A stretch of DNA of 64,000 nucleotides from GCF_057098645.1 NZ_CM169472.1; one strand, 5' to 3'. Shown: positions 6,133 to 8,078, counted from the first letter of the stretch. Program-made: numbers and translations. Notes: generated by a model not told the origin, from the sequence alone.

Positions 6133-6878
6133 ATGAGTAATATTGTTTATCTGACAGTAACGGGAGAACAACAAGGAAGCATCTCCGCAGGTTGTGGGAC
6201 TACTTAATCTATAGGTAATCGCTGGCAGAGCGGGCATGAGAATGAAATATTTACATTCTCACTCGCAAATAGCATTACTAATACGGGGCTTGGTTCACAG
6301 TTACAGGGTATAACATTTTGTAAATTAATTGATAAAAGCACTCCATTACTTATTAATTCCATTAACAATAATGAGCAATTATTTATGGAATTTGACTTTT
6401 ATAGAATCAATAGATTTGGCAGATGGGAAAAGTATTATTATATACAACTAAGAGGCGCTTTTTTATCGGCTATTCATCATCAGATCATTGAAAATCAACT
6501 GGATACAGAAACAATAACTGTTAGTTATGAATTTATCCTCTGTCAACATCTTATCGCAAATACCGAGTTCAGCTATTTGGTTGGCACTCCCTGAAAATTA
6601 TAACCGTTTGTTTTTACCAAATTCAAAAAACCAAACAAATAATGGTTTCAAAACGTTAAACAGCAAAGCTGTTGGCAGGCTACTTGCTGCTGGTGGCGTA
6701 TACAATGGGAACATTGAAGGTTTCAGAGATACTGCGGAAAAACTGGGTGGAGATGCAATCAAAGGCTATGATCAAATACTAAATGAAAAAACAGCGGGCA
6801 TAGCGATAGCAACAGCATCTATTCTTTTAACAAAGCGTTCTAAAGTTGATACATATACAGAAATAAATAGTTACTTAG
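6133..6878 (+). pseudogene. yhhZ: Hcp-domain-fused toxin gene, 5' part (Hcp-ET type T6SS effector); in-frame TAA at 6205-6207 and a frameshift in the 6527-6594 overlap
   Basis: ATG 6133 encodes MSNIVYLTVTGEQQGSISAGCGTT then stop; same frame reopens 6208..6594 (SIGNRWQSGHENEIFTFSLANSITNTGLGSQLQGITFCKLIDK...), then shifts to the 6527..6925 frame and runs into the IS5 end; AT-rich; positional equivalent of K-12 yhhZ (symbol assigned by position, from memory). Confidence 0.6.
6875..6878. repeat. Target-site duplication TTAG (left copy) of the IS5 insertion
   Basis: TTAG immediately precedes the IS left terminus GGAAGGTGCGAATAAGC at 6879; identical TTAG follows the right terminus at 8075. Confidence 0.7.
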
Positions 6879-8074
6879 GGAAGGTGCGAATAAGCAGGTC
6901 ATTTCTTCCCAAGCTGACTCGTTGATTAAAATTTCGCGGATCTGGGCCGATTTTTTTCCCGCAAACACATCGAATCAGCCTATTTAGGCTATTTTTTCCA
7001 CCATTTCTGGCGTTATTTCCGGTTTTTACTGAGATCTCTCCCACTGACGTATCATTTGGTCCACCCGAAACAGGTTGGCCAGGGTGAATAACATCGCCAG
7101 TTGGTTATCGTTTTTCAGCAGCCCCTTGTATCTGGCTTTCACGAAGCCGAACTGCCGCTTGATGATGCGAAACGGGTGCTCCACCCTGGCACGGATGCTG
7201 GCTTTCATGTATTCGATGTTGATGGCCGTTTTGTTCTTGCGCGGATGCTGCTTCAAGGTTTTTACCTTGCCGGGACGCTCGGCGATCAGCCAGTCCACAT
7301 CCACCTCGGCCAGCTCCTCGCGCTGTGGCGCTCCTTGGTAGCCGGCATCGGCTGAGACAAATTGCTCCTCTCCATGAAGCAGATTACCCAGCTGATTGAG
7401 GTCATGCTCGTTGGCCGCGGTGGTGACTAGGCTGTGGGTCAGGCCACTCTTGGCATCGACACCAATGTGGGCCTTCATGCCAAAGTGCCACTGATTGCCT
7501 TTCTTGGTCTGATGCATCTCCGGATCGCGTTGCTGCTCTTTGTTCTTGGTAGAGCTGGGTGCCTCAATGATGGTGGCATCCACCAAAGTGCCTTGGGTCA
7601 TCATGACGCCTGCTTCGGCCAGCCAGCGATTGATGGTCTTGAACAATTGACGGGCCAGTTGATGCTGCTCGAGCAGGTGGCGGAAATTCATGATGGTGGT
7701 GCGATCCGGCAGGGCGCTATCCAGAGATAATCGGGCAAACAGGCGCATGGAGGCGATTTCGTACAGGGCATCTTCCATGGCACCGTCGCTCAGGTTGTAC
7801 CAATGCTGCATGCAGTGAATACGCAGCATGGTCTCCAGCGGATAGGGCCGTCGGCCATTGCCCGCCTTGGGATAAAACGGCTCGATGACAGCGGTCATAT
7901 TCTGCCATGGCAGAATCTGCTCCATGCGGGAGAGGAAAATCTCTTTTCGGGTCTGACGGCGCTTAGTGCTGAATTCACTATCGGCGAAGGTGAGTTGATG
8001 GCTCATGATGTCCCTCTGGGATGCGCTCCGGATGAATATGATGATCTCATATCAGGAACTTGTTCGCACCTTCC
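6879..8074 (-). mobile_element. IS5-family insertion sequence (about 1196 bp) with terminal inverted repeats
   Basis: Left end GGAAGGTGCGAATAAG (6879-6894), right end ...TGTTCGCACCTTCC (8061-8074) are inverse complements; contains one 326 aa DDE transposase ORF; flanked by a 4 bp TTAG direct repeat. Confidence 0.9.
7026..8006 (-). CDS. insH: IS5 transposase (InsH-like, DDE)
   Basis: 326 aa [39 protein letters not shown]... closely matching IS5 InsH as I recall it. Confidence 0.9.
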
Positions 8075-8078
8075 TTAG
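8075..8078. repeat. Target-site duplication TTAG (right copy)
   Basis: See left copy at 6875-6878. Confidence 0.7.

Follow-up and report, generated by a model that had tools for sequence, protein, structure and literature searches.

ISKpn26 was first named in Klebsiella pneumoniae. The mechanism by which elements of the IS5 family move, with binding of the terminal repeats by the transposase, a staggered cut in the target and repair of the gaps, is established knowledge. ISKpn26 is an IS5-family element of 1,196 bp that makes a 4-bp direct repeat, which was CTAG in the case of an insertion in acrR (PMC8023600). In K. pneumoniae, it is described as a plasmid-borne element that often disrupts genes of the chromosome (PMC12492035). 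The target motif of IS5 is YTAR, and this motif occurs at 6.99 sites per kb in the coding DNA of Escherichia coli K-12 (PMC5009759). [quoted passage not shown]

We analyzed a stretch of 64,000 nucleotides (hereafter, the window; all positions are counted from its first letter), in which a gene of the Hcp-nuclease type is interrupted by an insertion sequence. The explanation that accounts best for the data, and which we hold to be very probably correct, is that ISKpn26 moved into the TTAG at codon 247/248 of yhhZ in a member of the O145:H28 lineage of E. coli, in which this gene was already dead, so that the insertion is likely neutral. The features of the locus are listed below.

6133–6878, plus strand: 5′ part of the pseudogene yhhZ/tssD, comprising the Hcp domain and linker, codons 1–247
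6875–6878, unstranded: left copy of the target-site duplication, TTAG, which fits the IS5 motif YTAR and is present as a single copy in empty-site genomes
6879–8074, minus strand: the whole of ISKpn26 (IS5 family, IS5 group), 1196 bp; its transposase gene runs antisense to yhhZ
6879–6894, plus strand: terminal inverted repeat GGAAGGTGCGAATAAG, on the 3′ side of the transposase gene (IRR when the element is read in its own orientation)
7026–8006, minus strand: intact transposase gene, 326 aa, the sole long ORF of the element
8059–8074, minus strand: terminal inverted repeat GGAAGGTGCGAACAAG, on the 5′ side of the transposase gene (IRL when the element is read in its own orientation)
8075–8078, unstranded: right copy of the target-site duplication, TTAG
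8079–8515, plus strand: 3′ part of yhhZ/tssD with codons 248–392, which encode the putative C-terminal nuclease region of the HNH (His-Me finger) type
8512–9006, plus strand: yrhA (NF038335), intact, the presumed cognate immunity gene

We observed that the terminal repeat arms are 16 bp long, with 15 of the 16 positions matching and one mismatch, when they were defined by a position script together with a repeat finder. A degenerate search with the terminal repeat motif returned exactly two sites in the 64-kb window, where 0.10 would be expected by chance, and it revealed no second copy of ISKpn26 within the 64-kb window. An earlier, sequence-only reading of this DNA had described an exact 4-bp TTAG on each side of the element, and these copies are seen at 6875–6878 and 8075–8078. 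It had also placed the terminal repeats at 6879–6894 and 8061–8074; the left position stands, and the right one was 2 bases short, as this arm occupies 8059–8074. The TTAG pair, the repeat arms and the perfect empty-site match described below together argue that the duplication and the insertion are real and did not arise by chance.

The transposase matched the NCBIfam model NF033581, "IS5 family transposase", with 367 bits (cut-off 140), and the Pfam models PF01609 (DDE_Tnp_1) and PF05598 (DUF772) with 123 and 75 bits, respectively. The features expected of an IS5-family insertion sequence were found at this locus: a DDE transposase, an element of ∼1.2 kb with terminal repeats, a 4-bp YTAR duplication and an empty site in relatives. 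Two small ORFs run out of the ends of the element, terminate in the flank or in or at the duplicated TTAG, and are probably not meaningful. One of them, of 91 aa (7803–8078, plus strand), exits one IS end and terminates with the TAG of the right duplication. The other (6871–7044, minus strand) exits the opposite end, and its counterpart is sometimes annotated as "hypothetical protein" in RefSeq.

Next, we considered the identity of the element. The name ISKpn26 rests on the NCBI annotation of identical copies together with the published length and family. Among the matches listed from a search of 5426 complete E. coli genomes, eight full-length copies were 100% identical to the element over 1196 bp and many further copies were 99.9% identical; the identical copies are annotated as "IS5-like element ISKpn26 family transposase". 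A near-full-length relative of the element is present in 2479 of the 5426 genomes. Plasmids carry it as well. Copies on Salmonella and E. coli plasmids in PLSDB were 100% identical to the element, and of at least 5000 plasmid records of this database that gave a match, at least 3683 have copies at ≥99% identity. Klebsiella (2399) and Escherichia (1434) predominate among the PLSDB matches listed, and most of the plasmids are conjugative.

It could be argued that the element is a canonical IS5 of the K-12 type with ordinary polymorphism, and not a distinct named element. The two share their terminal repeats, their transposases are identical at 321 of 326 residues (98.5%; comparison with K-12 InsH1), and the alignment with K-12 IS5A gave an overall DNA identity of 91.0%. 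Under the usual ISfinder rule, by which >90% DNA or >95% protein identity defines isoforms, canonical IS5 would count as an isoform of the element. However, the same alignment contains 108 differing columns, and the element measures 1196 bp as against 1195 bp for IS5A. Identity to IS5A was 93–100% in the coding core and 72–87% in both non-coding ends, and it was 72–77% over the first 120 bp of the element. Moreover, no differences at all were found from the copies that NCBI names ISKpn26, whereas the true IS5 copies residing in yhhZ of strains PSS-12 and DAM are identical to IS5A and differ from the copy in the window at 108 columns. We consider an ordinary IS5 highly improbable on these grounds. 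The element is best identified as ISKpn26, a catalogued close relative of IS5, and its annotation is corrected from canonical IS5. The earlier reading had gone in this direction: its placement of the element in the IS5 family is borne out by NF033581, the Pfam matches and the 4-bp TTAG duplication, its remark that the left subterminal sequence is unlike that of canonical IS5 agrees with the low identity of the first 120 bp, and the IS5 variant that it suspected has a name already, as is evident from the annotated copies at 100% identity.

The interrupted gene is yhhZ (tssD in RefSeq), located between yhhY and yrhA-yrhD-yrhB-ggt. The insertion is at gene positions 739–742, between codons 247 and 248, so that the Hcp domain with the linker lies on one side of the element and the putative nuclease region on the other. 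The intact YhhZ reference allele is that of strain A16, which encodes 392 aa. In this protein, the N-terminal Hcp/TssD domain scored 123.7 bits with TIGR03344 (cut-off 58.9) and 48.7 bits with PF05638, and the C-terminal Pfam HNH match of YhhZ, at 17.2–18.8 bits, was under the cut-off of 21.4. YhhZ has been classified in group 32 of the His-Me finger proteins in a systematic survey (PMC5714182), and the same 3′ fragment is labeled "HNH endonuclease" by RefSeq in strains 980-2 and WP7-S17-ESBL-01. yhhZ is predicted to encode an Hcp-HNH fusion, which is a type VI secretion toxin by type, and the gene as it stands here would not be translatable.

The start codon of yrhA overlaps the stop codon of yhhZ (ATGA). 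The yrhA product matched the YrhA family model NF038335 with 125 bits (cut-off 55), and the gene differs from A16 yrhA by one nucleotide. Judged by gene position only, yrhA would be the immunity gene that belongs to yhhZ. Further downstream, yrhB (9456–9794) belongs to the Imm35 immunity-protein family (81 bits). Relative to the intact A16 allele, it has a 1-bp deletion at ∼9711, which gives the product a different C-terminus and lets the ORF run on into the end of ggt; a pseudogene state of yrhB is likewise annotated in O145:H28.

We then compared yhhZ of the window with the A16 allele and observed two lesions besides the IS. One is a nonsense mutation, GAA to TAA, at codon 25 (window position 6205), and the other is an insertion of 4 bp, TTGG, at 6577–6580, after codon 148. 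Apart from the lesions, the window allele is 99.4% identical to that of A16. When the IS is left out, yhhZ of the window is base-identical to the allele of the O145:H28 strain RM12761, both lesions included, and the uninterrupted O145:H28 allele is flagged "frameshifted; internal stop" in RefSeq. It appears that yhhZ was a pseudogene before the IS arrived; this order is deduced from the distribution of the lesions among genomes.

The sequence-only reading had also claimed that excision of the element restores the toxin frame. This is true locally at the junction. Deletion of 6879–8078 gives ...AGT TAC TTA GGC AAA CTT AGA..., which reads SYLGKLRGQQ and corresponds to residues 245–254 of intact A16 YhhZ. 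It does not hold for the toxin, given the TAA at codon 25 and the TTGG insertion upstream: removal of the IS would not revive it, because the codon-25 stop and the 4-bp frameshift are already present in the empty-site allele. The continuous frame and the wild-type peptide at the junction are what a reversible switch would predict, in which the IS inactivated the toxin gene and its precise excision restores a functional Hcp-HNH toxin. However, both upstream lesions were found in every closely related empty-site genome examined, and precise excision of an IS is very rare; in mutation-accumulation lines of E. coli, excision made up 1 among 857 IS events, and the element concerned was IS3 (PMC5009759). 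Such a switch is extremely improbable. We correct the annotation of yhhZ to a triple-hit pseudogene, in place of a toxin switched off by an IS.

The origin of the insertion was traced through its empty site. The reconstructed empty site (600 + 600 bp) was identical at 1200 of 1200 positions in six E. coli genomes, which include the O145:H28 strains RM12761 and RM13516. The best 26 empty-site matches (≥99.8%) all came from O145 or its close relatives, and an uninterrupted yhhZ site was present in 3771 genomes in the E. coli complete-genome search. The 20 kb downstream of the IS showed 100.0% identity (rounded) with O145:H28 genomes. Outside the element, the window differs from the chromosome of O145:H28 RM12581 by 13 SNPs, one 9-bp indel and one 1-bp indel over 62.8 kb. 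The window is, as judged from these comparisons, a piece of chromosome of the O145:H28 lineage with a private insertion.

At 35228–35254 there are three copies of the 9-bp tandem repeat CAATCCCAG, where O145:H28 RM12581 has two; the copies are in frame and read as an LLG repeat in a small hydrophobic ORF (34961–35278, minus strand). The 1-bp deletion relative to RM12581, at ∼61160, is intergenic, between nikR and a gene for a GntR-family regulator. We also noted two other features of the window from the collinear RM12581 annotation. A type II toxin-antitoxin pair, ataR-ataT, lies at ∼23881–24681 (minus strand) between panM and livJ. A cluster of ∼15.6 kb between yhhT and acpT (∼39977–55582) encodes acyl carrier proteins, ketosynthases, dehydratases, an AMP-binding enzyme, a glycosyltransferase and an MMPL transporter, and it looks like a lipid or polyketide biosynthesis island.

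The yhhZ–IS junction was found in none of the 5426 complete E. coli genomes, with both orientations searched, and an exact 34-mer junction scan gave no match among the GTDB species representatives and the JGI metagenomes. The junction-spanning ORFs at 6527–6922 and 8060–8512 had no exact-protein match in public assemblies, a result of no weight, as gene callers may pick other starts. Because the junction is absent from all of the 5426 complete genomes, the insertion appears to be strain-specific and recent. We infer its recency also from three observations: the duplication is perfect, the element shows no divergence from other copies, and the insertion is confined to one strain. A junction that occurs in no other public sequence searched could instead have been created by an assembler that misplaced an IS copy at yhhZ, and assemblies often go wrong at repeated copies of an IS. 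But a perfect 4-bp YTAR duplication next to a base-perfect empty site is the signature of transposition and not that of a collapsed or misjoined repeat, and we assign next to no probability to an artefact of this kind. As a strain-specific marker, the private insertion of ISKpn26 could aid typing and outbreak tracing in the O145:H28 lineage.

Insertions of IS5 or ISKpn26 were found at five other sites in yhhZ, in eight other complete genomes. These insertions start at gene positions 823, 827, 955, 985 and 1058, and the site in the window, 739–742, is distinct from all of them. A YTAR duplication was seen at each of the other insertions that has both flanks intact. The sites, in gene positions, are as follows.

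823–826: TTAG duplication, in strains B771, PSS-12 and DAM; DAM has an adjacent deletion of ∼200 bp
827–830: no matching duplication (CTAA on the left, TTAG on the right), in ABWA45; opposite orientation, with a deletion of ∼0.9 kb that reaches yrhD, yrhA being lost
955–958: CTAA duplication, in WP7-S17-ESBL-01; IS5, opposite orientation
985–988: CTAG duplication, in 980-2
1058–1061: CTAA duplication, in AST46

A bias in the orientation of the yhhZ insertions was considered and rejected, as a query made of the flank plus one IS end finds one orientation only, and the mirrored query returned two insertions in the opposite orientation. Some of the copies in yhhZ are mosaics of IS5 and ISKpn26. 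The copy of B771 (2883–4077 of its locus) agrees with IS5 over its first ∼39 diagnostic positions and with ISKpn26 from there on, and its site is that of the pure IS5 in PSS-12 and DAM. Short patches of IS5 type are found in the copies of 980-2 and AST46. These patterns suggest recombination or gene conversion between the IS5 and ISKpn26 isoforms. In addition, 1 bp is deleted in the copy of 980-2, a change that RefSeq labels "programmed frameshift".

The gene yhhZ has a G+C content of 35% and contains 25 YTAR sites in 1179 bp (∼21 per kb), a density ∼3-fold that of K-12 coding DNA. We attribute the repeated hits of IS5-group elements in yhhZ in other strains to this AT-rich gene being unusually dense in target sites, and we consider the density sufficient for the recurrence. 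It is unlikely that the 3′ third of yhhZ is a genuine hotspot of the IS5 group, with an excess of hits beyond target-site density. Possible causes of such a hotspot would be AT-rich chromatin of the H-NS type that attracts IS5, or selection against an orphan Hcp-HNH toxin.

The recurrence also bears on whether the insertion has a selectable consequence, either by driving or blocking the 3′ HNH fragment and yrhA, or because the recurrent hits disarm the toxin with the immunity kept. With regard to expression, an open frame (8060–8515) that begins with a TTG within the terminal repeat spans the whole HNH region. However, the spacing between this TTG and an AGGA is only 2 nt, a poor context for ribosome binding, and the IS end has no promoter-like site that points out of the element; in a promoter/terminator scan of 6700–8600, promoter matches were at or below the shuffled expectation. 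With regard to disarming, yrhA, which overlaps the yhhZ stop, stays intact, and IS5-group elements occupy six distinct yhhZ sites in nine genomes when the window is included. But yhhZ was already dead in this lineage, so that nothing was left to disarm, the high target-site density is enough for the recurrence, and both IS orientations occur in the gene. Furthermore, two of the other events deleted neighboring DNA, including yrhA in ABWA45, which argues against retention of immunity. A selectable consequence is very unlikely in our view. As the target was already a pseudogene, the insertion is most likely selectively neutral.

The course of events was very probably the following. A copy of ISKpn26, for which a plasmid donor is plausible given its plasmid distribution, transposed into the TTAG site of the chromosomal yhhZ. 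The DDE transposase would bind the 16-bp terminal repeats, the element would then be joined to the 4-bp staggered cut at the YTAR target, and the repair would produce the flanking TTAG duplication. By entering a pseudogene shared by the lineage, the element most likely added a recent and strain-specific step to the decay of an orphan type VI effector locus. The repeated hits of IS5-group elements in yhhZ illustrate the decay of such loci. The presence of a plasmid-associated IS with a Klebsiella-derived name in the chromosome of a Shiga-toxin lineage hints at past contact with IS-bearing plasmids.

Altogether, this is a known element showing its expected behavior in an already dead gene. In its length, terminal repeats, transposase and 4-bp YTAR duplication, the element of the window is the same as the described ISKpn26; there is no difference in the element itself, and what has not been seen elsewhere is its place of insertion, at codon 247/248 of yhhZ in an O145:H28 background. 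The IS5 of K-12 (IS5A/insH1) has the same architecture, 16-bp ends and target motif, but it is set apart by its length of 1195 bp, its 91.0% DNA identity and its diverged non-coding ends. Other insertions were seen at the yhhZ–yrhA locus, some of them, as in DAM and ABWA45, with adjacent deletions, and E. coli K-12 has an IS1 within yrhA. The interrupted gene is comparable to effectors of the Hcp-ET1 type, since the yhhZ-yrhA layout also has an N-terminal Hcp, a C-terminal region assigned to the His-Me finger proteins and a downstream gene presumed to confer immunity. Hcp-ET1 of STEC004 has been characterized, and YhhZ may be the same protein; the Pfam HNH score of YhhZ lies below the curated threshold. 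Unlike an effector of this type, the yhhZ of the window is a pseudogene hit three times, by a nonsense codon, a frameshift and the IS.
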